NCBI GenBank assembly: GCA_025963715.1
Contig: JAOQAG010000024.1
Coordinates: 1,155-65,154, forward strand
Length of the DNA: 64,000 nt
Source of the DNA: Bacteroidota bacterium
GTDB lineage: Bacteria; Bacteroidota; Bacteroidia; 2-12-FULL-35-15
Direction: 5' to 3'
This document shows positions 6,746 to 62,464 of this stretch, piece after piece (position 1 is the first letter of the stretch; every line of letters begins with the position of its first letter). A model generated the notes under the pieces. The model was not told the origin of the DNA and did not search any database. It saw only the letters and a list, made by a program, of their open reading frames with translations. Both the position numbers and the translations under genes were made by a program.

Positions 6746-6792
6746 ACCTCACCCCTTCATCCCCTCTCCACAGGGAGAGGGGGCGATGCCCC
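6746..6792. repeat. REP-like palindromic element, family A (core cccctctccacaGGgagagggg)
   Basis: Near-identical copies at about 11551-11599, 22441-22487 and 35278-35323. Confidence 0.8.
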
Positions 6793-11424: not shown

Positions 11425-11550
11425 TTGGTGCTATTCTCTCCGCAACAATATAATTTTTTAATCCGTGAATCTGTGGCTTCTCTTCAATTTAAGTACAAAT
11501 AAAAAATCAGTGCCAACCGCTCATCATAATCTGTTTTCACACACAATACT

Positions 11551-11599
11551 CGCCTCGCCCCCTCTCTTGTGGAGAGGGGATGAAGGGGTGAGGTCTGCC
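11551..11599. repeat. REP-like element, family A (inverted orientation)
   Basis: cgcctcgccccctctcttgtggagaggggatgaaggggtgaggtctgcc. It abuts the tex stop codon. Confidence 0.8.
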
Positions 11600-14170: not shown

Positions 14171-14202
14171 ATATAGCATAAGCACTGCATCTGCGCACAG
14201 CA

Positions 14203-14240
14203 AAACTTTGAACTTTTGAACTTTAAACTTTGAACTTTTT
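14203..14240. repeat. short tandem aactttgaactttaaactttgaac element (family E)
   Basis: Copies at 30819-30853, 57757-57800 and 57937-57980. Confidence 0.7.
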
Positions 14241-22440: not shown

Positions 22441-22487
22441 AGACCTCTCCCCTTCATCCCCTCTCCACAAGAGAGGGGGCAACACCC
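22441..22487. repeat. REP-like element, family A
   Basis: agacctctccccttcatcccctctccacaagagagggggcaacaccc. Confidence 0.8.
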
Positions 22488-22529
22488 GAACTGTGTGTGC
22501 TAAAACCGAAGTGAAATCATAAATTTTTA

Positions 22530-29837: not shown

Positions 29838-30815
29838 ATGGAAGAAAATATTTTTCAAAACAGGGTTGATCTAAGCCGTTTACAGCAAGCCGTAAGCAGC
29901 ATTAAAAACGAAGTAAGCAAAATAATTGTCGGGCAGGATCAAATGATCGACTTATTAATTGCCGCTATTTTAGCCGATGGACATGTGCTGATAGAAGGTG
30001 TTCCGGGAGTTGCAAAAACGCTGACAGCAAAATTACTTTCCAAAACATTGTCTGTTGATTTTTCGCGGATCCAGTTCACACCCGACCTGATGCCTTCGGA
30101 TATTATCGGAACAAATGTGTACAATCTTAAAATATCGGATTTTGAATTTAAGCAAGGTCCTTTATTCTCCAATGTAATTCTGATCGATGAAATTAACCGT
30201 GCTCCTGCAAAAACACAATCCGCTTTGTTTGAAGCAATGGAGGAACGCCAGATCACCGTGGAAGGAAAAACCCACATACTTGCCGCTCCGTTTATTGTGC
30301 TTGCCACTCAAAATCCTATTGAGCAGGAAGGCACGTACCGTTTGCCGGAAGCGCAGCTCGACCGTTTTTTGTTTAAAATAGAAGTGGGTTATCCTTCACT
30401 GGAAGATGAAACAAAGATCATTTCGGATTTTCATCTCCGCAAGGATAAAAACGATATTACCATCATTAATGGTGTAATGAATACCGAAGATATAAAAAGC
30501 TACCGGGCGACTGTGAGCGAGATCCATGTGGAGGATCACCTGATCGGATACATTGCAAAAATAGTGAATCAAACACGTAACAATTCCTCTTTATACTTAG
30601 GCGCTTCGCCGCGTGCATCACTGGCAATACTTACCAGTGCAAAAGCAATTGCTGCTATGCGCGGACGCGATTTTGTAACACCGGATGATATTAAATTTGT
30701 TGCGACCGCCGTTTTAAAACACCGGATCATACTTACTCCTGAAAAAGAAATGGAAGGGATTACAACGAGTGAAGTGGTAAAACAGATCATCGAAAAGATA
30801 GAAGTGCCGAGATAA
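29838..30815 (+). CDS. MoxR-family AAA+ ATPase
   Basis: IVGQDQMIDLLIAAILADGHVLIEGVPGVAKT (Walker A) and LIDEINRAPAKTQSALFEAMEERQITV. Confidence 0.9.
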   Translation: MEENIFQNRVDLSRLQQAVSSIKNEVSKIIVGQDQMIDLLIAAILADGHVLIEGVPGVAKTLTAKLLSKTLSVDFSRIQFTPDLMPSDIIGTNVYNLKISDFEFKQGPLFSNVILIDEINRAPAKTQSALFEAMEERQITVEGKTHILAAPFIVLATQNPIEQEGTYRLPEAQLDRFLFKIEVGYPSLEDETKIISDFHLRKDKNDITIINGVMNTEDIKSYRATVSEIHVEDHLIGYIAKIVNQTRNNSSLYLGASPRASLAILTSAKAIAAMRGRDFVTPDDIKFVATAVLKHRIILTPEKEMEGITTSEVVKQIIEKIEVPR

Positions 30816-30818
30816 GGA

Positions 30819-31012
30819 AGTTCAAAGTTTAAAGTTCAAAAGTTCAAAGTTTGCTGTACGGATAACAAACAGGAACGAAACTGCGAATCTGTGCGTGAGG
30901 GAACCCGGATCAGACGGATGCTGCAGATCTTAACGGATTAAAAAACAGGATTACTGTTATAAAATTTGCAGGATCAAATTCCCCTCTTGAGAGGGGTTAG
31001 GGGTGTGTAATA
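30819..31012. repeat. repeat insertion block between MoxR and DUF58: family E (agttcaaagtttaaagttcaaa), family I (gataacaaacaggaacgaaac...cgaatctgtg), family A' (cccctcttgagaggggttaggggtgtg)
   Basis: Three different interspersed repeat families packed into an otherwise tight operon gap. Confidence 0.7.
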
Positions 31013-34187: not shown

Positions 34188-35277
34188 ATGATTACTACAG
34201 ACCAACTAAAAGACCTTCGGGAGCGCACGGATGCGTTGAGGGGGCATCTTTGACGTCGACCGCAAATTACGGGAAATAGCCGAAGAAGAGGAAAAAGCAC
34301 TTGCTCCCAATTTCTGGGACAATCCTAAAAAAGCAGAAGAACTGCTGAAACAAACCAAGATCAAAAAAAACTGGACCAAGTCGTATGCTTCTTTAGCGGG
34401 CAGCATGGACGACCTGGAGCTGATGTATACTTTTTTTAAGGAAGGGGAAGCATCGGAAGAGGATGTGATGCAGCAATTTGGCCTTACAAGCACCTTGCTG
34501 GAAGAGATCGAGTTTAAGAACATGCTGAGCGGCAAGGAGGATATCCTGAGCTGCGTGGTGCAGATCAATGCCGGTGCCGGTGGTACCGAAAGCTGCGACT
34601 GGGCCGAAATGCTCATGCGCATGTACCTGATGTGGGGCGAAAAGAATGGATACAAGGTAAAAGAAACCGATCGCTCGGAAGGCGATGTGGCCGGAATTAA
34701 ATCGGTAACGCTGGAGTTTGAAGGCGATTATGCCTTTGGATATTTAAAAGGCGAAAACGGTGTACACCGCCTGGTGCGCATTTCCCCGTTTGATTCCAAT
34801 GCAAAACGGCATACGTCGTTTGCATCGGTGTATGCTTATCCGCTGATCGATGACACGATTGAGATCGATGTAAATCCCGGTGACCTGGAATTTGAAACGT
34901 TTCGCTCCGGCGGTGCGGGCGGACAAAATGTGAACAAGGTGGAAACGGCGGTACGACTGTATCACAAACCATCGGGTATCATCATCAAAAACCAGGAATC
35001 GCGCTCGCAATTGCAAAACAAAGAAAATGCGATCAAGTTATTGAAGTCGCAATTATTTGAAATTGAGCTGCGCAAACAACGCGAAGCGATTGATGCGATC
35101 GAAGGAAATAAAAAGAAAATTGAATGGGGATCTCAGATCCGTAATTATGTTTTTCATCCGTATAAACTGATCAAGGATGTGCGCACGGGTTACGAAACGT
35201 CCAATATACAGGCGGTGATGGATGGCGATCTCAAGGATTTTATAAAAGCGTATTTGATGGAGTATGGGAATAGTTAA
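34188..35277 (+). CDS. prfB: peptide chain release factor 2, expressed through a +1 programmed ribosomal frameshift
   Basis: Frame-0 [24 protein letters not shown] ends at an in-frame TGA inside AGGGGG CAT CTT TGA C (34239-34254). The +1 frame continues [14 protein letters not shown]... into the track ORF 34405..35277, which carries SPF and GGQ motifs. Confidence 0.9.
34239..34254 (+). other. prfB: prfB +1 frameshift site: internal SD-like AGGGGG, 3-nt spacer, slippery CUU, UGA, C
   Basis: Exact match to the canonical RF2 autoregulatory frameshift cassette. Confidence 0.85.
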
Positions 35278-35323
35278 CACCTCTCCCCTTCATCCCCTCT
35301 CCACAGGAGAAGGGGGCGAGGCG
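35278..35323. repeat. REP-like element, family A
   Basis: cacctctccccttcatcccctctccacaggagaagggggcgaggcg, directly after the prfB stop. Confidence 0.8.
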
Positions 35324-37858: not shown

Positions 37859-38089
37859 CGTGCATCGTTGTTTGTGATCGTTGTATTGAAAATACATTCA
37901 CTATAAAAATACACTTTTTAGTAATTGCCAGTGAAGCGGGGGGAATAAAAACCGCCCCGCAGAGATGCGGGGCGGTTAATATAAACGTTTTATTGTATCA
38001 CTATTTTTTTGCTGCCTGTAATGATTACAGGCGGTTTTTGTTTTGTTACTTTTCACACGTATTACCTGATACAAACTACTAAATACTAA

Positions 38090-41000
38090 TTATTGCTGTT
38101 TCACCATTTTTTTAGTTTCAATAATTTTACCATCCACTACCAATGTATAGGTATAAATACCATTGGAAAGATCATCGCCAAACACATTTAATTGTCCCGC
38201 TCCTTTTTGTGTTAATTCCGTTGCCTGGATCAATTTGCCTTGCGCATTGTAAAACAAAATTTGTGCTTTACTTACGTTATCCGGTAAAAAATAAGTAATT
38301 ACCGTTTGTTCAGCCCATGGATTTGGCGTGTTCTGATTCAAAACAATGTTTTGTCCGTCGTTTAAATTAACGTGAATAGGAGTTGCATTGCTGGTGCCGT
38401 TCAATGCCTGGTGGCTTGCACAACATGCATTGATCATATCTGATAATACATTGATCTGATTTTGGAGGTTAGTGTTTTGATTTTGCACGTACGTGTTGAT
38501 CGAATCCTGGTGGTGGTTAATATTGCTTACACTATCCAACTTTGCCTGTTGTTCCTGCATGCCTTTCATTAAAATAGCAATAAAAGCATTATAGTTAAGT
38601 GCTTTGTATGTTACAGCAGGATGTACCAATACACCCGCGGTATCGTAATCAGCAGGTTTCACTGTCGAATAAATTAATTCTGGTAATACTGTTTGAACAT
38701 CCTGAGCAATTAAACCGTATTGTTTTTGCCCCGGGAATTTAAAACCGTTTGTATTTGCAGTATCAAGGTAATATTGCCGGGGTTTTAATTGCTTAATAAT
38801 TCCCATAGCGTTGGTAATGGAATCAATGTTTGTTTTAAACATTATATCGGATGTTAAAATATTATTACTGCCGCTAAGTGTTCCATTAAACAGTACATTG
38901 CCTTCAAACCGTCCTGCATAGTTTGTGGTTGCTCCACTTGCCGACGCATAAATCCCGTAAGCCGTATTGCCGCCTGTAGCGGTAGTAAATATGCCGTAAT
39001 TGGTTGCACCGGAAGCAAATCCGATTGCACTAAATACACCACCCTGATTGGTAACAGTGCCATCCATAGCATCGGCTTCAACCCCTGTATTGTTTGGTGC
39101 AGTACCCGATCCTGTAAATAATCCGCCATCATTACCTGTGGATGAGCCCGAAGCGCTTGCGTCCACAGCAATATTATCTCCGCTCCCGGTTTTTGTGGTT
39201 GTAAATTTTCCAGCCTCAAAATCATCGCTGGTGCTTACTTCCAGTTTTGCTATTGTTGGTGCTACTGTACCTATTCCGATTCTGTTTACACCAGCCGTGC
39301 CCGATCCGGTAAACACAATATTGTTATTGTTCATAGGTACTTCGCGGTTATTAAGCAATGCTGCCGGATTTCCCGGCTGCCCTACATCCTGCCCGAAAGC
39401 TACATAATTGGGGGTTATAAGGCTTAAGGATGTTCCGTTATGTGCGCCAGCAACGCCACCCGATGCACTTGCAGGTACGTAGATCACATCCCCGTTTGCA
39501 TCAATTGTGAGCAAACCTGTTCCCGGATTAGGAACGGTTGCCGATGATGTATTTAAGTTTGTAAAACGTAAACCGCTGCTTCCTGTACCACCCGTTCCGG
39601 CAGTAGGACTTACCAGCTGAGAGCTGATCTCCAGTGTGTTTCCGGGAACCATCGTATTGATTCCCATAAACCGCTGCTTTAAAAGTTGCGTGGCTGTATT
39701 GGTCATTGTATTGTCCTTTATAAAAATAGCAAGGTCGCCTGTTTGTGTTTGCGAAAAATCAGAAAACTTGCCAGTCGTCATAGGATTTGCAGGATCCTGC
39801 TGATAGTTGGTTAAGCGGAACAAAGCATCGCCGTTTGAAGCAGCTGTTGTTTTATCGGATAATATTTCCAGCCTCCTTGCCGGATCTTTAAATGGAAATA
39901 AAGGATTGTTGTAAAAATTACCGATCCCCCAGTTGCCAATCGGGCTTATGCGGGCAGTTTCAAGCCCATCCGTACCTGTTGCCGGTGGCGTGCCTGCGCC
40001 GGATGGCGTGGTGGTGGACGTAAAAATAAAACGGAAATAATCGGGCCCGTTACCCGGAGGCAAACCGCTTACCTGGTTATCGCCCCAGTTCAATACGGCA
40101 TCCTGCCGGTCGAAACCGGTGATGGTTCCCGCTTCCTGTTTTAAACCAATGTATACGTTATCGCTCTGGTTGGATACAAACATCCCGATGTCCATCCAGG
40201 AGCGCCATCCGTCGTTGGTAGCACCTTGCACATCATACCCTAAATGCAATAAGCTTAAAGGCCGTGTGATAGGCGTTGTAGGATCGTGGCTGATAGCAAC
40301 ACGTGTGCGGTTAGCCGCTAAACCACCGGGATTAAATGCAACACCGTTGTTTAACGCACCTATCTGTGTAATGCGGATGCGTTCGCCGTTGTTGGAATAC
40401 AAACTCAAACGGTCGTTCTCCTGCTGGTTAATGCGCGCTTCCAGGTTAGTAGCATTGGTAGGCGCATAGCCCACTTTTAAGCCATCGCCAGCCGTTTGCC
40501 CGGTTCCGTTTTGATTGGTAACCTGCATATACACTTGCCTGTTTTGATCCAGGCTAAGATGTAAGAGGGATTGCGGACGAACATAAATTGCCGAGCTGGC
40601 CGGATTTCCAAAAGTATTTCCCAAACCAAATTCGCCCGTAGGCGCAAAACGGGCAATGTGCCTGCCGTCCAGATCGTCTTCCGAATTTAGATTGGGATCA
40701 ATAGTAGTACCCGCACCAAGCCCCATAAAGCGGAAAGCAAAATCGTCGGGTCCTGTTCCGGTCGGATTGGAATTATCGCTCCATGAAACCACCATCTCCG
40801 TTTGATCCTGCCCCGGTACCAATTGCCTGATCCCGAAATACATTAAATCATTGTTACCGGTAAATGTTATCCCCGTTTTCATCCAGGGGCGGTAACCGTA
40901 TTCTTGTGTAAAACCGCCACCAGTAACAGAATTTTGCGGGCCGTTCAAATGTAAAAGTGAGAAAGCGCCCTTTTGTTGATAGATCGGGCCAAGAAAACCT

Positions 41001-41353
41001 TGTGTTTGAGTATTATCCCCCAATAACAAATAACCGCTGGTGTTTACACCAGTGAGATAACCATTGATAGGATATTGAGGTGTGCCCGGAACGCCAAAAT
41101 CTCCGTTTAGTTTTTCACGGAAAGCGCCATTTGTTTGGGTATAAATTGGGGAGTTAAATAATGTACCAAAAATGTTATTGTTACCACCAAAAGGTGTATT
41201 TCCTGCTCGTGACCAAAAGGCGCCGCTATTGGTACCATTAAGCAATACACTGGCAGGATTATTATTTGTTGGATTTTGCTGTGCAATTACATTCTCATGT
41301 AAGCCCAAACCAAAACCCAATAAGGCAATTGTTTTTAATATTTTATTTTTCAT
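38090..41353 (-). CDS. large secreted tail-fibre-like protein: peptidase-S74 intramolecular-chaperone autoprocessing domain plus T9SS type-A C-terminal domain
   Basis: Signal peptide. An ~800-aa G/N/T-rich region. ILTSDIMFKTNIDSI...LKPRQYY...YGLIAQDVQTVLPELIY matches the S74 / endosialidase-chaperone signature. A coiled-coil stretch follows. C-terminal AQILFYNAQGKLI...GIYTYTLVV is a T9SS CTD. Confidence 0.7.
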   Translation of the reverse strand: MKNKILKTIALLGFGLGLHENVIAQQNPTNNNPASVLLNGTNSGAFWSRAGNTPFGGNNNIFGTLFNSPIYTQTNGAFREKLNGDFGVPGTPQYPINGYLTGVNTSGYLLLGDNTQTQGFLGPIYQQKGAFSLLHLNGPQNSVTGGGFTQEYGYRPWMKTGITFTGNNDLMYFGIRQLVPGQDQTEMVVSWSDNSNPTGTGPDDFAFRFMGLGAGTTIDPNLNSEDDLDGRHIARFAPTGEFGLGNTFGNPASSAIYVRPQSLLHLSLDQNRQVYMQVTNQNGTGQTAGDGLKVGYAPTNATNLEARINQQENDRLSLYSNNGERIRITQIGALNNGVAFNPGGLAANRTRVAISHDPTTPITRPLSLLHLGYDVQGATNDGWRSWMDIGMFVSNQSDNVYIGLKQEAGTITGFDRQDAVLNWGDNQVSGLPPGNGPDYFRFIFTSTTTPSGAGTPPATGTDGLETARISPIGNWGIGNFYNNPLFPFKDPARRLEILSDKTTAASNGDALFRLTNYQQDPANPMTTGKFSDFSQTQTGDLAIFIKDNTMTNTATQLLKQRFMGINTMVPGNTLEISSQLVSPTAGTGGTGSSGLRFTNLNTSSATVPNPGTGLLTIDANGDVIYVPASASGGVAGAHNGTSLSLITPNYVAFGQDVGQPGNPAALLNNREVPMNNNNIVFTGSGTAGVNRIGIGTVAPTIAKLEVSTSDDFEAGKFTTTKTGSGDNIAVDASASGSSTGNDGGLFTGSGTAPNNTGVEADAMDGTVTNQGGVFSAIGFASGATNYGIFTTATGGNTAYGIYASASGATTNYAGRFEGNVLFNGTLSGSNNILTSDIMFKTNIDSITNAMGIIKQLKPRQYYLDTANTNGFKFPGQKQYGLIAQDVQTVLPELIYSTVKPADYDTAGVLVHPAVTYKALNYNAFIAILMKGMQEQQAKLDSVSNINHHQDSINTYVQNQNTNLQNQINVLSDMINACCASHQALNGTSNATPIHVNLNDGQNIVLNQNTPNPWAEQTVITYFLPDNVSKAQILFYNAQGKLIQATELTQKGAGQLNVFGDDLSNGIYTYTLVVDGKIIETKKMVKQQ

Positions 41354-41365
41354 ATTGTTAAGTAT

Positions 41366-42319
41366 TTACCTTAACAACTGAATAAAACCTTTTTTTGTTT
41401 GTTTGCTTTTTTGTTCTGATATATAATAATACACACCATTGTTACAATTTATACCTGCGCTCGTTTTACCATCCCAACCTATATTATAACTTCCTTCAAA
41501 TACTTTTAATCCCCAGCGATCATAGATCGTGTATTTATCGCCTTCTTCGATACCAGTGATAAAAAAAAGATCATTTATACCATCGTTGTTGGGTGTAAAA
41601 ACGTTTGAGATTGGTAAGGCATCTTCCAGATCAATGATACTTACATCCTCAACATAATAATAAGAATTCGGAGTAGACGATGGTTGTATTTCAAGCGTAT
41701 CATTTTCTAATGTTGAATCTGAATAATTGCCAATAGTAATGTACTGCTCGTTTCCATTTGCTTTAAAATCCCCGCTAATCAATACCCATCCCGTTGTATC
41801 TGTTATAAAACTACCTGCTGGGTTTTTAATTTGTGGAGAATAATAGCTAAAAGGATATGTATCTGTACGACTGATCGCAGTATTAGAAAGGTAAGCCCCG
41901 ATATTTGAAACAGCATATTGGCTGTAATCCGATAAAGAAACATAAAACGAAACCTGATAAGTATGACCTGATAACATGGGCTGAGATAATTTACTCTGTA
42001 TGTATTCCATCCATATTCCGGAGGACAAATCCATTGCCAAGAAACCGCAATAGCCGTTCCCTGAACGCGCGTATTCATAGCCAATACCATTGGAAGGAAC
42101 ACCCACCAAACCGGTATTACATACATTCAAATAATCGGATGTTGCACCAGTTGGTGTATCCCATCCCAAACAATGAGTAATCTGGTGATCCCAAGGTACC
42201 GAAGGACCAATAGGACAAGTATCATAAATTTCAAAATCTCCATTGTAAACAAGGTTAGTTTGGGCGTTGCAAAACACCGAAGCAAAAACAAAAAATAATA
42301 TGTAAAAGGGTTTATTCAA
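41366..42319 (-). CDS. secreted protein with T9SS type-B (gliding-motility-associated CHU_C-like) C-terminal sorting domain, paralogue 1
   Basis: TTG start. Signal peptide MNKPFYILFFVFASVFCNAQ. C-terminal NVFTPNNDGINDLFFITG...YTIYDRWGLKVFEG...GWDGK...GVYYYI is the type-B CTD signature. Confidence 0.8.
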   Translation of the reverse strand: MNKPFYILFFVFASVFCNAQTNLVYNGDFEIYDTCPIGPSVPWDHQITHCLGWDTPTGATSDYLNVCNTGLVGVPSNGIGYEYARSGNGYCGFLAMDLSSGIWMEYIQSKLSQPMLSGHTYQVSFYVSLSDYSQYAVSNIGAYLSNTAISRTDTYPFSYYSPQIKNPAGSFITDTTGWVLISGDFKANGNEQYITIGNYSDSTLENDTLEIQPSSTPNSYYYVEDVSIIDLEDALPISNVFTPNNDGINDLFFITGIEEGDKYTIYDRWGLKVFEGSYNIGWDGKTSAGINCNNGVYYYISEQKSKQTKKGFIQLLR

Positions 42320-42570
42320 TTATTAAGATTGATTACGTTTTTATCACAAGCATTTTTTAACAGCCATTGTGACTTGTCTGTATCAAATTTAAGGCTTTTA
42401 TCTCATAAATATTTCTCCTTTCTTCTTTAAATAAAAATCTAATAGAAACTGAAAATTAGAACATCTGCATTACATTTCAATGGACACTTTTGATGCTCTG
42501 GGACATTTTCCGGTTTCCAACATGCTCAACAAAACCTAACACTGTAATTTTACTGCAATTATAAGTGTTG

Positions 42571-42593
42571 CCGCGGACAAAATTTGTCCGCGG
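42571..42593. promoter_or_regulatory. perfect 11-bp inverted repeat ccgcggacaaa-a-tttgtccgcgg in the conserved leader, flanked by two direct repeats aacatgctcaaYaaaac
   Basis: Read directly. An identical copy lies at 44088-44110 in the second unit. Confidence 0.5.
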
Positions 42594-42858
42594 TCAATAT
42601 AATTAGGGTTTTCTTTAGCTCTGTGGTATTTTATTGGAATTTGAACATGCTCAATAAAACAGGGCACATTGTTTTTCAAAGATGAGGAGAGAAAAAGAGG
42701 AAGTCAATCCGTAAAAACACGGTATTTTACCCGTAAAAAAACGGGTATGGGTTTTATTTTAATAATAGAAAAAAAAATGAGAATGTTGTTACCTATCCGT
42801 AAGTATAAGGCGAGCTAAGGACCTACTAGTGCAGGTAATTTTCGAAATACAGGTTGTT

Positions 42859-43836
42859 TTACCTTAACAATTGAATAAAACCTTTTTTTGTTTGTTTACC
42901 TTTTTGTTCTGCAATGTAATAATACACACCGTTGCTACAATCTAACCCTGCATTGGTTTTGCCATCCCAGCCTACATTATAACGACCTTCAAATACTTTG
43001 ACACCCCAACGATCATAAATTATATATTTGTCGATTTCTTCTAAACCTGTGATTAGAAAGAGATCATTTTCCCCATCACTGTTTGGTGTAAAAACATTTG
43101 CAATAGGCTTCTGATCTGTTATATCAAAGGTACTTCCACCATCCACAAAATAATAAGCATTTGGTACATCAGTATTGTGTAAAACAGTAAGCGTATCGGT
43201 CGTTATTGAATCCTTAAAATTACCAATAGTAATATATTCTTCTCCTCCCAATGCGCTATAATCACCCGAAATTAATGTCCATGATGTCGTATCGTTTAAA
43301 AACACGCCGACAGGGCTTGTAATTTGCGGCACATAGTTTAGTGGTGCAGGGCTACAACTATTACCAACAGGAGTATTCGAGATATAAAAACCAAGTTGTC
43401 CAACAGCAATATTTGAATTATTACCTAAGGAAACATAAAATCCAATACGGTAGATATGCCCTGCAACAAGAGGACTGATGAATTTCCCCTGTATGTACTC
43501 CCACCAAAAACTTCCATTATAACATCCGCCACCACTTAAAGTGTAAGCATAAAAACCACAATAGCCGTTTCCGGAATAGGGCATTTGATAACCAAATCCA
43601 TTGGCTGGAATTGCGACGGTTGATGTATTGCAAGTATTCAAATAATCTGATGTTGCATAGGTCGGTGCTTTCCATCCTAAACAATGCTCTATTTCATAAG
43701 GAATAGAAAAGGGGCTGGATGGGCCAACAGGGCAAACGTCATACATCTCAAAATCCCCATTGTAAACAAGGTTCGTTTGAGCCTTGCAGAACACTGAAGC
43801 AAAAACAAAAAATAATATGTAAAAGGTTTTATTCAA
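42859..43836 (-). CDS. secreted protein with T9SS type-B C-terminal sorting domain, paralogue 2
   Basis: N-terminus and C-terminus are near-identical to paralogue 1. The central ~200 aa are about 50-60% identical. Confidence 0.8.
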   Translation of the reverse strand: MNKTFYILFFVFASVFCKAQTNLVYNGDFEMYDVCPVGPSSPFSIPYEIEHCLGWKAPTYATSDYLNTCNTSTVAIPANGFGYQMPYSGNGYCGFYAYTLSGGGCYNGSFWWEYIQGKFISPLVAGHIYRIGFYVSLGNNSNIAVGQLGFYISNTPVGNSCSPAPLNYVPQITSPVGVFLNDTTSWTLISGDYSALGGEEYITIGNFKDSITTDTLTVLHNTDVPNAYYFVDGGSTFDITDQKPIANVFTPNSDGENDLFLITGLEEIDKYIIYDRWGVKVFEGRYNVGWDGKTNAGLDCSNGVYYYIAEQKGKQTKKGFIQLLR

Positions 43837-44087
43837 TTGTTAAGATTGATTACGTTTTTATCACAAGCATTTTTTAACAGCCATTGTGACTTGCCTGTAT
43901 CAAATTTAAGGCTTTTATCTCATAAATATTTCTCCTTTCTTCTTTAAATAAAAATCTAATAGAAATTGAAAATTAGAACATCTGCATTACATTTCAATGG
44001 ACACTTTTTGATCTCTGGGACATTTTCCGGTTTCCAACATGCTCAACAAAACCTAACACTGTAATTTTACTACAATTATAAGTGTTG

Positions 44088-44110
44088 CCGCGGACAAAAT
44101 TTGTCCGCGG
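44088..44110. promoter_or_regulatory. second copy of the 11-bp perfect inverted repeat
   Basis: ccgcggacaaaatttgtccgcgg. Confidence 0.5.
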
Positions 44111-44342
44111 TCAATATAATTAGGGTTTTCTTTAGCTCTATGGTATTTTATTGGAATTTGAACATGCTCAATAAAACAGGGCACATTGTTTTTCAAAGAT
44201 GAGGAGAGAAAAAGAGGATATCAATCCGTAAAAACACGGTATTTTACCAGTAAGAAAACGGGTGTTCTTTTTTTATATCTTTACAAGAAGCATTTATACC
44301 TGTTACCATTACAATACAAAGCATACTAACCACAACCACAAA

Positions 44343-45173
44343 ATGAAAAAACACCGCCTCCTCCTTATCTGTTTTTGCCTTTTTACTTCTTTTATAAAAA
44401 GCCAGGAAAACAATACAGCCCAGGCTACTGCTTTTTATAAAACAGCACAGCACAAAGTGGAGCTGGAACAATATGATTCGGCTACTTATTATTTTGGCCG
44501 TGCAATTGATTTACATTATCCCGATAAAAAGGTATACGGCAATCGTGGTGTAAATGAATCCCGGCAAGAGAAATATGCCGAAGCACTTATTGATTACGAT
44601 ACCGCGTTAAAATACATGCCGGATAATGCACTGCTATTATGTAACAAAGGAATTGCGCTTGCACGCTTAAAAAGAAATGAGGAAGCCATTACGTATTTTA
44701 ACCTTGCACTTAAAATCGACAGTACCGATGCTGAAACATACAGCTGCCGGGGCGTTACTTACCAGGAAATGAATGATAGCATTGCTGCCCTTAAAGATTA
44801 CAACCATGCGATCATCTTGAGTCCCAATTTTGCCGATTATTATTACAACAGAGCGCGCCTGTTTAAAGATTCGAAGCTGGCCATTAAAGATTACGAAAAG
44901 GCAATTAAACTGGAGCCGGGTATGTATGATGCTTATTATAACCTTGGGGTAGTATATCTTAACACAGATAAATTTAAGAATGCCATCAGCATATTTCAAA
45001 AAGCATTACTGCTTACAACCGATCATAAAGCAGAAGTAAATTATGAGCTGGCAGAATGTTATTGGTATTCCAACAAAAATGATAAAGCGTGTGTTTATTT
45101 CAAACTAGCATTATCATTGGGCTATACCGGGGAAATTGCAAAAGACCTGCAGGAATATTGCAATGGTAAATAG
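44343..45173 (+). CDS. TPR-repeat protein with signal peptide
   Basis: MKKHRLLLICFCLFTSFIKSQ, then about 7 TPR units (AxxYxxAL...P). Confidence 0.75.
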   Translation: MKKHRLLLICFCLFTSFIKSQENNTAQATAFYKTAQHKVELEQYDSATYYFGRAIDLHYPDKKVYGNRGVNESRQEKYAEALIDYDTALKYMPDNALLLCNKGIALARLKRNEEAITYFNLALKIDSTDAETYSCRGVTYQEMNDSIAALKDYNHAIILSPNFADYYYNRARLFKDSKLAIKDYEKAIKLEPGMYDAYYNLGVVYLNTDKFKNAISIFQKALLLTTDHKAEVNYELAECYWYSNKNDKACVYFKLALSLGYTGEIAKDLQEYCNGK

Positions 45174-45340
45174 TAAAGCCCCTTCAGACCCAACCAACGC
45201 TTTTGTTTTTTTCCACTGTTTTTAAAAAACAACCCGTCTTAACAAAAAGCTGATCTAATGATTCCTTTATCGTAATTGTTTTTTCTTAAAATTTGTAATA
45301 TATTAGCGTGGATAACCACATAAACAGTTTTTACATTCGA

Positions 45341-48172
45341 ATGAAAATTACTACTCCACGAAGCAAGCTTCTTGCTTTTGTATTTTTATTAGTGTCCGTT
45401 TCATCAGTATTTGCACAGGTAAGTTATAATGCAGCTGCCATTTACAGCATCCGCAAAGTAGCTCCCAACTACGGCGGTAAGCCCATACAAGTGCGCCGCA
45501 CCTGCGATAACGCCGTAAAAGATATTCCATTTACTTCCTGCGGCGACCTCGATACCGTTGCACTCAAAACATTTGTGGTTGCAGCAAATCCTTTAAGCTC
45601 CATCACTGCCGCATCTGCCGCAGCATACAGCCTGCGCAGGTTAAGCTGCAGCTATGCTGGCAATGCTATACAAGTGAGACGCAGCAGCGACAATGCAACA
45701 CAAAACATTGGCTTTAACGCCTGGGGCGATTTGGATACCGCTGCCCTGCGCACCTTTGTAGGAGCCAACAGCGCCTTTGTTACCATCTGGTACGATCAAA
45801 GCGGGAACGCCCGCAATGCCACACAAGCTGTAACCACGCTGCAACCCCGGATCATGAATGCCGGTGTGATAGAGCGGCAGGGCGGAATGCCCGCCATCCG
45901 CTGGCTTGGTATTGGCTACGCATTAGCTACTGCCTCCTTTACAGCTTACGGAAGTGCTGCCTGCTATAACGCGGTGGCAAAAGTAAACGCCAATACTACT
46001 ACCGGTTACAATACCACCGTAAATAAATGTACGGCCAACTTTCCGGCGCCCTTGGATCTTTACAACGCACAGCTGGTAATCGGATCCGGACCCAGCTATA
46101 CTTTTTTTAGCATGTCGCAAACATTTGATGTTACACAAAGCTATGCCATCTGGACCTACCAGGCTTCCTCCGGCGGAAGCGTAAATGCTTATAAAAACAG
46201 CACCAATATATGCACCGGCAGTGTTGTTTATTATGGCGATATCGGAACCCCGCTGGTATTAGGCAGCAGGGCCGATATACTTACCGGGCTGGATGGCTGG
46301 ATGTCGGAAGTGATCACCTTTGCCGTATTACCAAGTGCTACAGAGCGCGCCTTTGTGGAATGGACACAGGGACAATATTACAACCTCAGCGGCGCGCCTG
46401 CATTAGGAACAATCCCTCCGGGCGCACCCAGCGGCTATATTGCCACCTGGTACGATCAAAGCGGAAACTCCGTAAATGCAGTACAGGCTACAATCGCCAA
46501 CCAGCCCAGGATCATCAACGTGGGCGTGATAGAGAAAGACGGAACCAAAACAGCCCTGCACTTTGGCGGTGCATCGCAAAACCTTACCGTTGCCACACCT
46601 GTTACCTCCTACCCTGCTTCCATCAGTGTGTTAGGCAATACCGCAGGCGCATCCACCAACGGTGCATTTGTAAAACTGGGCGCAACCTCCGGAAGCGGCG
46701 GCATTGGCATCGGCATTGGTAACTCTGGCGGAAACTTTGATGCTGCGGGTACATCACTAATCGGCTTAAAGGAATTCCAGGTATGGTGCGCTTCCAGCCC
46801 CAATGTAAATTTTCCTTCCAGCCCGTTTACAGTAACACAGATCCAGCAAACTGCTGTTGCAGGCAGTGGCATGACGGCTTTCCTGAACGGAACAAACGTA
46901 CCTTTGGCTTCGGCAGGCAACGTTACCGATGGCAGCACTCTCAGCGGCAATCTCTTTATTGGCGGGTATAACAACGGCACCAGCCGTTTTCCGGTGATGA
47001 AACAATCGGAAGTGATCGTATACGGAAGCGCGCTTTCCGTTACACGCCGCACTTTACAGGAAACCAACCAGGCAGCGTATTATAGCCTTACCATCAGCAA
47101 TAATAAATACACACCACCGGCTAGCGGCTACCGTTTTTATGTAACCGGTGTGGGCCGCGAAACTGTCAGCGACAGCGTAGCAGCAACCCGCAGCTCTGCC
47201 GGAATGGGCTTTATTGTGGGACAAAGCGGAACCGACTTTTTAAAAGACAACGGCGATTATATTACCGCAGGTATGGATTGCCCGGTACCAAGCAGCTCCA
47301 CCTCCAACCTTCCGGCAACCGTAACTCAGCGCTGGACCAATGATTGGTATATCCATAAAACGGATGTGAGCTCCAACAACGGCACCATCACTATTTATTT
47401 TGATTACAGCGAATACGGCGTATGGGGATTACCGGGCATTGCGGCCAATTATGTATTGCTGGATCGCAGTACACCTTCCGGAACGTTTGCTATTGTGGCC
47501 GGAACAACGCCAAGCGTATCGGGCAACCGGGTTTTGTTTTCGGTAGATGCCGCCAACATTACCACCGACAGGTATTACACTATTGGGACAAAAAACATTG
47601 CATTAAGTCCATTGCCAATAGAGTTGCTGGAGTTTAAAGCAGAAGCCTGCGATAAAGATGTCTGTCTCAACTGGAGCACTGCCACCGAAACCAACAACGA
47701 TTTTTTTACCATAGAAAAAACAGCGAACGGTACTGATTTTGAAACCGTGACCACTGTGGATGGCGCCGGTAACAGCACACAACGCCGCAACTATACTGCA
47801 ATGGATCATGCACCATACGAAGGAAAATCCTATTACCGTTTAAAACAAACGGATTTTAACGGGCATTATACTTACTCCGGTTTGGAAGATGTAGCGTTTA
47901 CCGGAACAACAGATTTTTCGTTTGAAGTATTCCCCAATCCAAATGCAGGTGAAAACATTCAGCTGGCCATTAACACTTCCAAAGGCGAAGAGATCCTGGT
48001 GGTGGTATATGATGCAACAGGCAGGGAATCGTACTCGAAAGTAATTATTACGGATGATAATTCCGACAATGTGTTTGCGATGGATCCTTCCGGAAAATTA
48101 AAACCGGGCATTTACTTTATTACCGCCACTTCCAAACAGGCAATCTACAGCAAGCGGATGATCGTGCAGTAA
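45341..48172 (+). CDS. large secreted repeat protein with T9SS type-A C-terminal sorting domain
   Basis: Signal peptide MKITTPRSKLLAFVFLLVSVSSVFAQ. Internal repeats include YSIRKVAPNYGGKPIQVRR / YSLRRLSCSYAGNAIQVRR and WYDQSGN..NA.QA....QPRI.N.GVIE. C-terminal FEVFPNPNAGENIQL...GIYFITA. Confidence 0.7.
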   Translation: MKITTPRSKLLAFVFLLVSVSSVFAQVSYNAAAIYSIRKVAPNYGGKPIQVRRTCDNAVKDIPFTSCGDLDTVALKTFVVAANPLSSITAASAAAYSLRRLSCSYAGNAIQVRRSSDNATQNIGFNAWGDLDTAALRTFVGANSAFVTIWYDQSGNARNATQAVTTLQPRIMNAGVIERQGGMPAIRWLGIGYALATASFTAYGSAACYNAVAKVNANTTTGYNTTVNKCTANFPAPLDLYNAQLVIGSGPSYTFFSMSQTFDVTQSYAIWTYQASSGGSVNAYKNSTNICTGSVVYYGDIGTPLVLGSRADILTGLDGWMSEVITFAVLPSATERAFVEWTQGQYYNLSGAPALGTIPPGAPSGYIATWYDQSGNSVNAVQATIANQPRIINVGVIEKDGTKTALHFGGASQNLTVATPVTSYPASISVLGNTAGASTNGAFVKLGATSGSGGIGIGIGNSGGNFDAAGTSLIGLKEFQVWCASSPNVNFPSSPFTVTQIQQTAVAGSGMTAFLNGTNVPLASAGNVTDGSTLSGNLFIGGYNNGTSRFPVMKQSEVIVYGSALSVTRRTLQETNQAAYYSLTISNNKYTPPASGYRFYVTGVGRETVSDSVAATRSSAGMGFIVGQSGTDFLKDNGDYITAGMDCPVPSSSTSNLPATVTQRWTNDWYIHKTDVSSNNGTITIYFDYSEYGVWGLPGIAANYVLLDRSTPSGTFAIVAGTTPSVSGNRVLFSVDAANITTDRYYTIGTKNIALSPLPIELLEFKAEACDKDVCLNWSTATETNNDFFTIEKTANGTDFETVTTVDGAGNSTQRRNYTAMDHAPYEGKSYYRLKQTDFNGHYTYSGLEDVAFTGTTDFSFEVFPNPNAGENIQLAINTSKGEEILVVVYDATGRESYSKVIITDDNSDNVFAMDPSGKLKPGIYFITATSKQAIYSKRMIVQ

Positions 48173-57526: not shown

Positions 57527-57980
57527 TACCACTAAGGCACTAAGAACACTGAGCCCCCGCCCATTAACCACAAAAGAAAACAAAAGAAACAAAAGACGAA
57601 GCTAATATTTTACCACTAAGGCACTGAGGGCACTAAGGTTATTTCCCCCAGCCCCCGTCAACCACATAAGGCACAAAGAAACACATAAGGCGGGGCTTGT
57701 TAACCTGTGGTGTAGTGTATGATGTGTTTTAATAAATAATTAAATCGTCATCCGTACACAGCAAACTTTGAACTTTTTAACTTTAAACTTTGAACTTCTT
57801 TTGCCTTCGTGGCTTCGTGGTAAAAAAACCGCTCCGCAGGAACACACAGCATCCTTTTTATTTTGAATTTCCTCCCTTTTTCTTTCCCTTTCTTAGTGCC
57901 TTAGTGGTAAAAAATGATCGCGCAAGCGATCCACACAGCAAACTTTGAACTTTCCAACTTTAAACTTTGAACTTTTTATT
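57527..57980. repeat. dense repeat field in the feoA / mlaE divergent region: family D word-variants (accactaaggcactaag, accacataaggcacaaag) and family E (aactttgaactttaaactttgaac) x2
   Basis: Read directly. Confidence 0.75.
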
Positions 57981-59622: not shown

Positions 59623-59995
59623 GTAATAGAAACGCAGATTTTATAGGATCGGTTAGGATTAAAAAGATAGCTGTGTCTATCAGCAGGCGCGAGTGTCCCA
59701 CTCGTGCTTTTTTATTTTATGGCATCCTGCCATTGTACAAAAGCTTTAAGTTTGTGTAAATTGGAACCCAGATTTTATAGGATCGGTTAGGATTAAAAAA
59801 GATAGCTGTGTCTATCAGCAGGCGCGAGTGTCCCACTCGTGCTTTTTTATTTTATGGCGTCCCGCCATTGTACAAAAGCTTTAAGTTTGTGTGAATTGGA
59901 ACGCAGATTTTATATGATCGGTTAGGATTAAAAAAGATAGCTGTGTGTGCTATTATCAGCTAAGATTAAAAAGATGGCTGTATTTTCTACTTAAT
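59623..59995 (+). repeat. tandem array of ~135-bp units (2 full plus 1 degenerate). Each unit has a TAAGTTTG -7-like box and a terminator hairpin (gcaggcgcgagtg-tccc-actcgtgc + ttttttatttt). Candidate tandem sRNA genes.
   Basis: Units at about 59623-59762, 59763-59897 and 59898-59995. A lone copy of the hairpin core lies at 4195-4225. Confidence 0.6.
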
Positions 59996-60137: not shown

Positions 60138-61223
60138 CTATTTAGAAACAACGAATTTTTTAGTGAACATGTGTCCGTTTGCAGTTAATTGGTAAAAGTA
60201 GTTACCGGAAGCTAAGTTAGAAGCATCGATATCCACTTTGTAAGTACCTGCATCCTGGTGACCGTATGTGTTGTTAGCAATTTTACGTCCAACCTGATCA
60301 TAAACAACTAAAGTTACGTTGTTAGAACCTTTTTCCAAAGTATACTCAACAGTAGCTTTGTCAACAGTTGGGTTAGGGTAAGTTGTTAATTTCATACCGT
60401 TGTAGAATTCAGTAACACCAGTAGCGTCGCTGATTACAGCCCAGATAGCGATATCGTTATCTAATCCGCCTGTTCCGAAAGTTGGAGAAGCAGGATCGCT
60501 GAACAATGCATCAGTTACATACCATTTAGTTCCGTATTTGTGGAAAGCTAAATCGATGTTAGCAGCATCATTTTGGTTATCACTAACGATACCTACAGTA
60601 TCACCGGCAGCTAATGAAGTTGCATCAACTCCGATAGCGAAATCGCCTGTGAAAGTAGCAACAACTGACAAAGGAACGTAGTTCCATTCTCCTGGCATTG
60701 TATCAATGTTAGAGAACAATAAGTCAGCAGTAGAAACTGCAACACCGCTAGGTCCTTCAGCGTTTAATACTGTAGAGTTGAAAGTACCGCTGTTATCAGT
60801 ATTGTAAGCTTTGTTAGCAGCTAAGTTGTAAGTGTTGATTTTCAATTTTGATGTTGCAGAGCTTCCTGCATCGCTTTCCATAGCAGCGAACCAGATCAAA
60901 GCACCAACAATGTGAACAGGAGTTGCATTTAAGTTAGCATAACCCTGAGCACAAACGTTTAATCCGTCAACGTTATTTCCGTAGATGTAACCACCGCCAG
61001 TATAACCGTAGATAGATGCTGCTCCACCTCCAGGTAAAAATTCAGGTAAAAAGTCGATAACGTTAACAATACCTGTTGTATCGTTACCGGCACGTTCAAC
61101 AGAAGAAGCATGTACAAATGGTTTTGTTCCATTAACGTGTGCTTTTCCGGCTTTAGAGCCAGTTTGTGCAAAAGTTGCTACAGATAACAAGGTAGCACCT
61201 GCGATTAAGTAGATTTTTTTCAT
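60138..61223 (-). CDS. secreted protein with T9SS type-A C-terminal sorting domain, unknown function
   Basis: Signal peptide. C-terminal LTTYPNPTVDKATVEY...GNYFYQL. Confidence 0.7.
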   Translation of the reverse strand: MKKIYLIAGATLLSVATFAQTGSKAGKAHVNGTKPFVHASSVERAGNDTTGIVNVIDFLPEFLPGGGAASIYGYTGGGYIYGNNVDGLNVCAQGYANLNATPVHIVGALIWFAAMESDAGSSATSKLKINTYNLAANKAYNTDNSGTFNSTVLNAEGPSGVAVSTADLLFSNIDTMPGEWNYVPLSVVATFTGDFAIGVDATSLAAGDTVGIVSDNQNDAANIDLAFHKYGTKWYVTDALFSDPASPTFGTGGLDNDIAIWAVISDATGVTEFYNGMKLTTYPNPTVDKATVEYTLEKGSNNVTLVVYDQVGRKIANNTYGHQDAGTYKVDIDASNLASGNYFYQLTANGHMFTKKFVVSK

Positions 61224-61381: not shown

Positions 61382-62464
61382 TTATTTAACGATTACCATT
61401 TTCATAGCAGTAGTTGCATTTGCACCAACTGTTAATGAATAATAATAAACACCTGCAGCAAGATTTTCACCATTGAATTTCAATGAATGCTGTCCTGCGC
61501 TTTGTGTTCCTTCATTTTGTTCAGCTACTTTGTTTCCGGTTACATCGTAAACAGTAATGGAAATTGCTGCTGTTTTGTTCAGTTCGTAGTTAATAACAGA
61601 TGTAGAGCTGAATGGGTTTGGCATGTTCTGAGCAACTTTTACTCCGTTTACAAATTCGTTAATGCCTGTTGAAACACCTTCTGTTAAAAGGATCTCATCC
61701 AATCTTATTACGTCCATATCGTTTGCAGTGTGATGGAAAGCGATTGCTACCTGTATTCCATTAAAAGACGCAGGGATAGCCATGGAATGCAATACCCATG
61801 TAGTATCTGTTGCATAGGTTGGCGACGGATATGCTGCATCTGCCAATGAATAAATGCTTGTTGCCGCATCAAAATCGGTAAAGTTCATTGGTGTAGAGAA
61901 GACGTCAGAAACCAATACGGAATAACCATCACGGTAACGGTTAAAACGATCGTACCATGATAATGTAGCACCGGCAGCAGGGATTGTTACAGGCCCGATT
62001 TCCAGCCAGTTGTCAGCTTGTCCTGCAGGATCAAACCAAGATGTTCCTGACCAGAAGAATGCTGTATCAGTACCCAATGGAGCTGGTGTTTCCCATGGAT
62101 GGTAATAGTTAGCACCGTGAGGAACAGTACAAGTAGCACATGATTGTCCATAAATGCTTGAATCTGTTGAATAATAAACGCCGAATGATGTTGCATAACC
62201 GGCATTGTGAGTTGTTAAACCATCGATATCTTCCGTTACAACGTCAAATGTAGGAGCATCGGCAGAATTGATGATAGTGCTTGGCAATGGTTGGTACATT
62301 AAAGTATCACCCGCCATACGCGTAGTGTTTGCAGGCATTGCTACAATGTGTGTTCTTGTGGTTGATTTGTGGTCGGTACCGGTTTGTGACGTACCTTTTA
62401 CCTGCTGAGCATTTGCTGAACAAACAATTGCCGTAGCTGCAATTAATGTGTAGATTTTTTTCAT
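61382..62464 (-). CDS. secreted protein with T9SS type-A C-terminal sorting domain, unknown function
   Basis: Signal peptide. C-terminal QNMPNPFSSTSVINY...GVYYYSL. Confidence 0.7.
   Translation of the reverse strand: MKKIYTLIAATAIVCSANAQQVKGTSQTGTDHKSTTRTHIVAMPANTTRMAGDTLMYQPLPSTIINSADAPTFDVVTEDIDGLTTHNAGYATSFGVYYSTDSSIYGQSCATCTVPHGANYYHPWETPAPLGTDTAFFWSGTSWFDPAGQADNWLEIGPVTIPAAGATLSWYDRFNRYRDGYSVLVSDVFSTPMNFTDFDAATSIYSLADAAYPSPTYATDTTWVLHSMAIPASFNGIQVAIAFHHTANDMDVIRLDEILLTEGVSTGINEFVNGVKVAQNMPNPFSSTSVINYELNKTAAISITVYDVTGNKVAEQNEGTQSAGQHSLKFNGENLAAGVYYYSLTVGANATTAMKMVIVK

Follow-up and report, generated by a model that had tools for sequence, protein, structure and literature searches.

The locus described here raises the question of why a noncoding flank should be better conserved between tandem gene copies than their coding sequence. 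Two adjacent genes, designated A and B, are located within a 64,000-nucleotide stretch of contig JAOQAG010000024.1 from a Bacteroidota bacterium (assembly GCA_025963715.1; this whole stretch is called the window). They encode small T9SS (type IX secretion system) cargo proteins with a type-B sorting domain, and each is preceded by a noncoding leader that is nearly the same in the two copies. The original prediction, made from the letters alone, offered purifying selection or gene conversion acting on the leader, or diversifying selection acting on the center of the genes, as the cause. The near-identity of the leaders is probably the result of homogenization by gene conversion between old tandem paralogues, a process deduced from the distribution of identity along the two units and from similar arrays in other genomes.

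Identity Profile of the Two Units

The two units were aligned at the nucleotide level, and matches were counted in 50-nt windows. The segments compared are the following.

41366-42319, minus strand: gene A, 317 aa, with signal peptide, putative CBM4-like beta-sandwich and CHU_C sorting domain (open reading frame, Pfam and NCBIfam)
42279-42319, minus strand: first 41 coding nt of gene A, into which the high-identity tract extends according to the list of mismatches; counterpart at 43796-43836
42320-42746, minus strand: leader copy 1, positions -1 to -427 of gene A
42747-42858, minus strand: spacer of 112 nt, 3' of the gene B stop codon, after which gene A's leader begins; nothing in the other unit corresponds to it
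42859-43836, minus strand: gene B, 325 aa, a paralogue of gene A whose center belongs to a different subfamily
43837-44263, minus strand: leader copy 2, positions -1 to -427 of gene B

The leader copies are 97.4% identical over 428 nt and differ at about 10 sites. Matches per window number 46-50 of 50 in the leader, 43-47 in the first 100 coding nt, 22-33 in the center, and 33 rising to 43 at the 3' end. Identity of the coding sequence is ~87% to position +100, 44-66% in the center, and increases from 66% to 86% toward the stop codon; the two proteins are 60-62% identical. Beyond -427, units A and B are unrelated, and the 5' edge of the leader is the exact end of homology. A third copy of the leader was not found in the 64-kb window. 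The near-identical leader of ~400 bp, the similar coding ends and the diverged center that had been described from the sequence were all confirmed by this alignment.

A second tandem pair of T9SS cargo genes, of type A, is found at 60138-61223 and 61382-62464 (361 and 360 aa). Only the sorting domain is common to this pair, and conservation does not extend to the upstream regions; the leader phenomenon is thus not a general property of cargo genes in this genome.

Divergence at Synonymous Sites and Mosaic Relationships

Synonymous (pS) and nonsynonymous (pN) differences between genes A and B were obtained from Nei-Gojobori counts.

Codons 2-20: pS 0.27, pN 0.04
Codons 21-35: pS 0.60, pN 0.08
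Center: pS 0.60, pN 0.37
Sorting domain: pS 0.55, pN 0.12

The leader differs by ~2.6%, whereas synonymous differences of 0.27-0.60 are found throughout the genes. The claim that the leader is better conserved than the coding ends therefore holds even against the synonymous sites of those ends, and the test named for refuting it, a leader identity no higher than that of synonymous sites, gave the opposite outcome. A simple recent duplication was rejected, since 27-60% of the synonymous sites in the coding ends differ and 2.6% of the leader does.

Region-wise identities were then compared across the protein family. The center of gene B is closest to proteins P0003, P0004 and P0005 from other metagenomes (60-67%) and the center of gene A is closest to P0011 (70%). 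For the first 60 residues (76% identity between A and B) and for the sorting domain (79%), the best match of each protein is the other; their sorting domains are at most 64% identical to those of the other 38 aligned family members. On these identities the A/B pair is a mosaic, in which the centers are old, separately conserved subtypes and similarity within the genome has been maintained at the ends alone.

The ratio of nonsynonymous to synonymous substitution rates (dN/dS) of the center is ~0.42, with dS saturated. The alignment of 40 family members contains 34 invariant columns and 36 that are nearly so, many of them located in the "variable" center. Diversifying selection on the central module, which had been proposed as one source of the pattern, was rejected on the basis of this dN/dS value, the invariant columns, and the closer relatives of each center in other genomes; the two centers come from different old subfamilies.

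Recurrence in Other Bacteroidota

Further loci of the family (numbered L001 and upward) were collected in two ways, through look-up of exact proteins and through a single scan of metagenomes for the conserved start region ATTGAATAAANCNTTTTAYATA. The scan provided 42 matches, 13 of which are family genes, one of them interrupted. The gene that follows gene A in the window is required for the comparison of these loci.

38090-41353, minus strand: S74-type gene, 1087 aa, with Peptidase_S74 (tail-fiber chaperone) and type-A sorting domains (Pfam, NCBIfam)

It is separated from gene A, the first gene of the operon, by a gap of 12 nt. The same order of a lectin-like gene, 11-15 nt, and an S74-type gene is kept in L001, L006, L088/L089, L090, L112, L115, and L116. 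The position equivalent to the window's spacer is occupied in other arrays by a fragment of the S74-type gene, and the small open reading frames that follow the upstream copies are its N-terminal pieces. Leader identity and coding divergence in the other loci are given below.

L005, tandem array of three units: leaders 82-93% identical, coding pS 0.72-0.77
L112/L116, tandem array: leader identity 97.6% across 575 nt, protein identity 41%
L001 and L088, between genomes: leader 95% identical, pS 0.58
L090 and L106, between genomes: leader 88.5% identical, pS 0.65
L090 and L130, between genomes: intergenic leader 75.4% identical, pS 0.52

Relationships in these loci also depend on the region that is compared. 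The leaders of L005 place units a and b closest and the coding sequences place b and c closest; a 300-nt block at the end of each L005 unit is 96-98% identical. The coding sequence of L090 matches that of L130 (84% in amino acids), whereas its intergenic leader matches that of L106 (88.5% vs 75.4%).

Contigs L112 (4783-8647) and L116 (1-5860) are 99.8% identical, yet they differ by a 2-kb cassette, which comprises the remainder of an S74 fragment together with one copy of the leader, a second lectin-like gene, and the beginning of an S74-type gene. The crossover maps to a short patch common to the 5' parts of two S74-type paralogues. The difference is a strain-level gain or loss of one array unit, and these arrays therefore recombine. 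The leaders of different lineages could not be aligned with each other or with the leader of the window; only the -7 promoter box and the start-codon context are common to them.

Probable Gene Conversion of the Leader

Of the options offered in the original prediction, gene conversion was judged the best explanation, given the gap between leader and synonymous divergence, the mosaic structure of the pair, and the recurrence in other arrays. Concerted evolution by gene conversion is recognized by a tract of near-identity inside old paralogues, by phylogenies that depend on the region, and by tract edges that ignore functional boundaries. The identity of the tract in the window far exceeds the synonymous identity of its flanks, and region-dependent relationships are found in the window, in L005, and in L090/L106/L130. 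The boundary of the tract ignores the start codon and runs to +41. The locus is like concertedly evolving tandem paralogues in each of these properties; it differs from the general case in that the tract is almost wholly noncoding, with 41 coding nt, and in that the pattern recurs in unrelated arrays. Since leaders cannot be aligned across lineages, sequence constraint alone cannot hold 428 nt at 97%.

The proposed sequence of events is as follows. An ancestral unit of leader, lectin-like gene, and S74-type gene would have been duplicated in tandem long ago, so that each lectin-like gene kept its own promoter, and the upstream copy in the window would later have lost its S74 part. Nonreciprocal homologous recombination would keep overwriting the leader between the copies, with the most recent conversion tract extending from -427 to about +41. 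Conversions that were older or rarer may explain why the signal-peptide region and the sorting domain are of intermediate similarity. The centers would be too diverged and functionally distinct, such that conversion no longer enters them or is selected against.

A recent duplication of the whole unit, followed by replacement of one coding body by a divergent allele with the leader/signal-peptide region and the sorting domain as anchors, is an unlikely alternative that still deserves some credit. Such a swap would account for the grouping of the two centers with different subfamilies from other genomes, and it is consistent with the whole cassettes that come and go between L112 and L116 and with the reassortment of leader types and coding types in L090, L106, and L130. 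It was rated below conversion of the leader because each sorting domain of the pair has the other as its nearest relative (79% vs at most 64%), and the two nonetheless show synonymous differences of 0.55. The 3' anchor would need to lie past the stop codon, or the donor would need to be a close relative, and no close relative of either copy was found among 5.8 billion proteins.

Predicted Promoter and Start Region

The leader is best read, on sequence evidence, as a promoter with a 5' untranslated region (UTR) of ~60 nt and ~355 nt of upstream DNA, the transcript start being placed from the promoter box.

42384-42391, minus strand: Bacteroidota sigma-A -7 box TAAATTTG, copy 1, 72 nt before the TTG start codon; predicted transcription start near 42379
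43901-43908, minus strand: -7 box TAAATTTG, copy 2; predicted transcription start near 43896

Exactly one TAnnTTTG sequence is present per leader, at -72 in both copies. An exact box is located 62-88 nt before the start codon in L087, L126, L090/L106/L130, L093, and L112/L116, and a box with one mismatch is located 77-90 nt before it in L125, L102, L115, L120, and L006a. In most leader lineages, the distance from an exact or one-mismatch box to the start codon is 62-94 nt. The density of TAnnTTTG is 81 per 128 kb in the window (both strands) and roughly 1 per kb in distal leaders, from which 0.03-0.05 boxes per lineage are estimated by chance in that interval. This low expectation indicates that the positional recurrence is not due to chance.

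In flavobacteria, according to PMC9723704, the -7 box spans -12 to -5, counted from the transcription start. Starts are therefore predicted near 42379 and 43896, and the 5' UTR would be ~60 nt long. A long structured 5' UTR, which had also been suggested, is less likely with a position-conserved box at -72. On the opposite strand of the window's leader only one-mismatch -7 boxes were found, and nothing convincing as a promoter.

TTG is the start codon of both genes, and two in-frame stop codons lie directly 5' of each. The start context CTTAWTAATTGAATAAACC is common across lineages and always contains TTG (for example at 42319 and 43836 in the window, 6001 in L001, 1829 in L087, and 8001 in L090). 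The first seven codons are nearly identical in nucleotides across lineages whose proteins are 45-55% identical.

Bacteroidota are largely without Shine-Dalgarno sequences. Most leader lineages have a Shine-Dalgarno-like block, AAGGAG(G), at a distance of ~20-45 nt upstream of the -7 box (42406-42416 in the window; equivalent positions in L093, L112, L090, L001, L005, and L120). In the window and L090, a two-codon mini-ORF (open reading frame; ATG AGA TAA and ATG AGC TAA) comes after the block.

Palindrome, Direct Repeats, and Hairpins

The part of the leader upstream of the promoter contains a palindrome, direct repeats, and a pyrimidine-rich stretch.

42571-42593, no strand: perfect 11+1+11 palindrome CCGCGGACAAAATTTGTCCGCGG, copy 1, ~260 nt before the start codon
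44088-44110, no strand: palindrome CCGCGGACAAAATTTGTCCGCGG, copy 2
42519-42535, plus strand: direct repeat AACATGCTCAACAAAAC, extending to 40 nt at 70% identity (42496-42535)
42644-42660, plus strand: the other direct repeat, AACATGCTCAATAAAAC, at a distance of 125 bp from the first
44036-44052 and 44161-44177: both direct repeats in leader copy 2
42718-42747, no single strand: on each strand, terminator-like hairpins located at leader copy 1's distal edge; degenerate in copy 2

The perfect 11-bp palindrome was found as predicted, and no match is expected in shuffled sequences. The repeat AACATGCTCAAYAAAAC occurs twice per leader with an expectation of 0.07; the paired direct repeats of the prediction are thus present far beyond chance, at a spacing of 125 bp and not the ~100 bp stated. 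The stem-loop cccgtaaaaaaacggg that had been cited as an example is also present, perfect in copy 1 only (42730-42745) and degenerate in copy 2. The distal hairpins at 42718-42747 probably end the transcript of gene B.

Operator sites are one possible role for the palindrome and the direct repeats. These motifs were found nowhere else in the window or in 132 fetched loci, and no comparable GC-rich palindrome was found in any other leader lineage. A dispersed repeat or miniature inverted-repeat transposable element (MITE) was rejected on this absence and on the lack of a third copy in the window. An invertible promoter was likewise rejected; inverted repeats do not flank the promoter, and no recombinase or integrase domain was detected among the 30 window ORFs scanned with Pfam.

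A possible regulator was observed in another locus. L087 contains a 68-aa HTH_3 (XRE-type) gene at 1388-1594, divergent from the family gene closest to the center of gene A, and the palindrome TTCAAATTT-N4-AAATTTGAA (1729-1750) overlaps the -7 box. This HTH_3 gene may be a local regulator without a counterpart in the window.

Selection on the Leader

The leader was searched for other functions. A search with the Rfam 15 covariance models gave no match at E<=1 in 38000-48000, and no match was obtained for the leaders of L001, L005, L116, L090, and L088. The longest ORF inside the leader (47 aa) has no homologue among 1.84 billion representative proteins. A known RNA family and a hidden small-protein gene were rejected on these grounds.

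In one leader lineage, an element on the strand opposite the CHU_C gene contains an invariant -7 box (TACnTTTG), a hairpin, a second hairpin of the form GGGAGG...CCTCC, and a T-run. It is located at 5768-5852 in L001, 617-700 in L088, 6996-7078 in L091, and 10542-10629 in L120, and at 5448-5526, 7428-7506, and 9461-9542 in L005. In the first hairpin, 2-4 pairs show compensatory changes, and numerous G-U pairs exist on that strand only. With a length of ~80 nt and without a match in Rfam, the element is a candidate for a divergent small RNA. Its covariance model detected nothing in the window or in the other leader lineages, and a small RNA common to the window and the L001/L005-type leaders was rejected.

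Several results weigh against the reading proposed here. Only two copies are available, from one metagenome-assembled genome, and there is no outgroup leader with which to date or polarize the conversion. Leaders compared between genomes also exceed synonymous sites (L001/L088, 95% against a pS of 0.58; L090/L130, 75% against 0.52), which indicates that part of the leader is under real selection. Both leader strands fold better than shuffled sequence (z of -3.8 and -3.1), and a role as RNA is possible; this folding is largely due to the palindromes and does not settle strand or RNA function. The -7 box is a consensus match, and with 81 in the window a single match in a leader is not rare. Selection on short blocks, namely the promoter, the start region and possibly the regulator sites, is real as judged from the comparisons between genomes.

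It is improbable that the whole 428-nt leader is a functional noncoding element held by purifying selection alone, whether as a structured 5' UTR, an opposite-strand RNA, or an array of regulator sites. The between-genome conservation in other lineages, the folding of both strands, the well-supported candidate small RNA of one lineage, and a palindrome and repeats far beyond chance all speak for such an element. They are opposed by leaders that cannot be aligned between lineages, by the failure of the small-RNA model in the window and of Rfam in the leaders to find anything, and by the absence of a comparable palindrome elsewhere. Moreover, the intergenic leader of probable orthologues is only 75% identical, far below 97%, and the high-identity tract enters the coding sequence. 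A small mobile or repeated element inserted before both genes, or a duplication created by metagenome assembly, is very improbable: the sharp 5' edge, the internal direct and inverted repeats and the metagenomic source of the genome are compatible with one or the other, but homology is unbroken from the leader through the coding sequence to the stop codon, no third copy exists in 64 kb, the copies differ at ~10 sites with both genes intact, and independent assemblies show the same architecture.

Encoded Proteins

The protein of gene A is identical to P0002 (JWP12_1911) and that of gene B to JWP12_1912, both from a metagenome-assembled genome. By inspection, each protein begins with a signal peptide, MNK(P/T)FYILFFVFASVFC(N/K)AQ, whose n-region is basic, whose core is hydrophobic, and whose A-x-A-like cleavage site precedes Q; this region is kept across the alignment of 40 family members. 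The sorting domain is matched at the extreme C-terminus, residues 237-317 of A and 245-325 of B. Scores of 66.4 and 67.0 bits were obtained for PF13585 (CHU_C; curated cutoff 27) and of 44.5 and 42.2 bits for TIGR04131 (type-B sorting domain; curated cutoff 35). Tandem type-B T9SS cargo genes, as originally annotated, are supported by these scores.

The Pfam family CBM_4_9 matches gene A alone at 21.4 bits, under the cutoff of 25.9. An AlphaFold model of the gene B protein, computed with the 40-sequence alignment as input, has a mean predicted local distance difference test score (pLDDT) of 77.7 and shows an N-terminal beta-sandwich. The top solved structures in Foldseek are CBM4-2 (2y64 and 4bj0; probability 1.0, target TM-score 0.58-0.59), and further matches include CBM22, CBM16, the Epf adhesin, and gingipain adhesin domains. 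A and B are read as small secreted surface proteins, putatively lectin-like with a CBM4-like fold, which may bind sugars.

The family is large, with 348 matches at E<=1e-5 in the search of 5.8 billion proteins, and the best non-self match of A or B is at most 60% identical. It is a widespread Bacteroidota family of ~330-aa T9SS type-B cargo proteins with a putative CBM4-like beta-sandwich, and its genes normally occupy the first place in an operon of two, the other encoding an S74 tail-fiber-like T9SS protein of ~1000 aa.

Operon Partner and Genomic Neighborhood

The S74-type gene is mosaic when L001 (6001-10369) is compared with L088 (851-5185). A block of ~700 nt is ~97% identical, with unalignable stretches between, and the 3' end is well kept (76-98% in 50-nt windows). 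The operon is located in unrelated genomic contexts in these two loci. The module of a small type-B lectin-like protein and an S74 tail-fiber-like type-A protein is common and apparently undescribed; no paper turned up in a full-text literature search for Peptidase_S74 plus type IX secretion.

Gene B and a TPR gene (44343-45173) are divergently transcribed. The 30 scanned ORFs of the window comprise housekeeping genes, a few without a Pfam match, and further T9SS cargo. No PorP/SprF gene was detected among them; a PorP_SprF gene does precede array L005.

Other Features of the Window

Three further features were observed outside the locus. Approximately 2.3 tandem copies of a 134-135-nt unit are located at 59625-59934, between an ABC-transporter (ATP-binding cassette) ATPase gene and a T9SS cargo gene; the two full units are 96% identical, and the first 41 nt occur three times at 93% identity. 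Two short dispersed repeat families are also present, one palindromic (CCCCTCTCC...GGAGAGGGG) and the other built of AAACTTTGAACTTT units. They are found at 6746-6789, 11538-11596, 22441-22499, and 35279-35322, and also at 14196-14243, 30812-30863, 57756-57801, and 57929-57977; in sequence they look like repetitive extragenic palindromic (REP) elements or MITEs. The release-factor ORF at 34405-35277 (PCRF and RF-1 domains) is without about the first 70 profile positions. The prfB gene is known for a programmed +1 frameshift, and the N-terminal part of this release factor is therefore expected in another frame just upstream.

Comparison with Known Systems and Significance

In the vsp locus of Mycoplasma bovis and the vpma locus of Mycoplasma agalactiae, the 5' UTR and signal-peptide region are conserved and the remaining coding sequence is very different (PMC2268961). 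The locus in the window resembles these systems in layout, with clustered surface-protein paralogues, conserved 5' and signal-peptide regions, and a divergent mature part, and is not a member of them. A neighboring tyrosine recombinase (Xer1) acts on 5' UTR sites of vsp/vpma genes and switches expression by inversion; in contrast, the genes of the window are co-oriented, each is provided with a -7 box of its own, the promoter lacks flanking inverted repeats, and the scanned ORFs include no recombinase.

Type-B cargo proteins, for example Flavobacterium johnsoniae SprB and P. gingivalis PG1035, are anchored via PorP/SprF-like proteins (PMC9143113). The proteins of genes A and B are like these in having an N-terminal signal peptide and a C-terminal type-B sorting domain (TIGR04131/PF13585). 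They differ in being small (~320 aa), in having a single putative CBM4-like domain and an S74-type fiber protein with a type-A domain as partner, and in that the scanned ORFs include no adjoining PorP/SprF gene, a neighbor that is frequent for type-B cargo but not obligatory.

The Peptidase_S74 chaperone domain is carried by mosaic phage tail-fiber and tail-spike genes. The S74 domain of the window's partner gene and the mosaic structure of the L001/L088 partner are like those of phage genes; the partner in the window differs in its chromosomal location and its T9SS type-A signal, and no phage genes surround it.

To our knowledge, little is known of how T9SS cargo genes are regulated and diversified. 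The arrays described here show that unrelated lineages maintain tandem genes with a uniform promoter-leader, old and differing coding bodies, and cassette differences between near-identical strains. A speculative and rather doubtful extension is that the arrays of leaders, lectin-like genes, and S74 fragments constitute a dedicated surface-variation system, in which the homogenized leader, including its palindrome and repeats, would be both a common regulatory switch that selects the cassette to be expressed and a homology handle for duplication, loss, or exchange of cassettes between strains. If true, they would be a Bacteroidota counterpart of the vsp/vpma loci that needs no dedicated recombinase. 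If the leaders reflect co-regulation or a recombination handle, they would provide a way for environmental Bacteroidota to vary surface adhesins and fibers, and such surface variation, if true, would bear on attachment, phage resistance, and grazing. If only passive gene conversion is at work, the locus would still be a clear natural case in which conversion is restricted to regulatory DNA.

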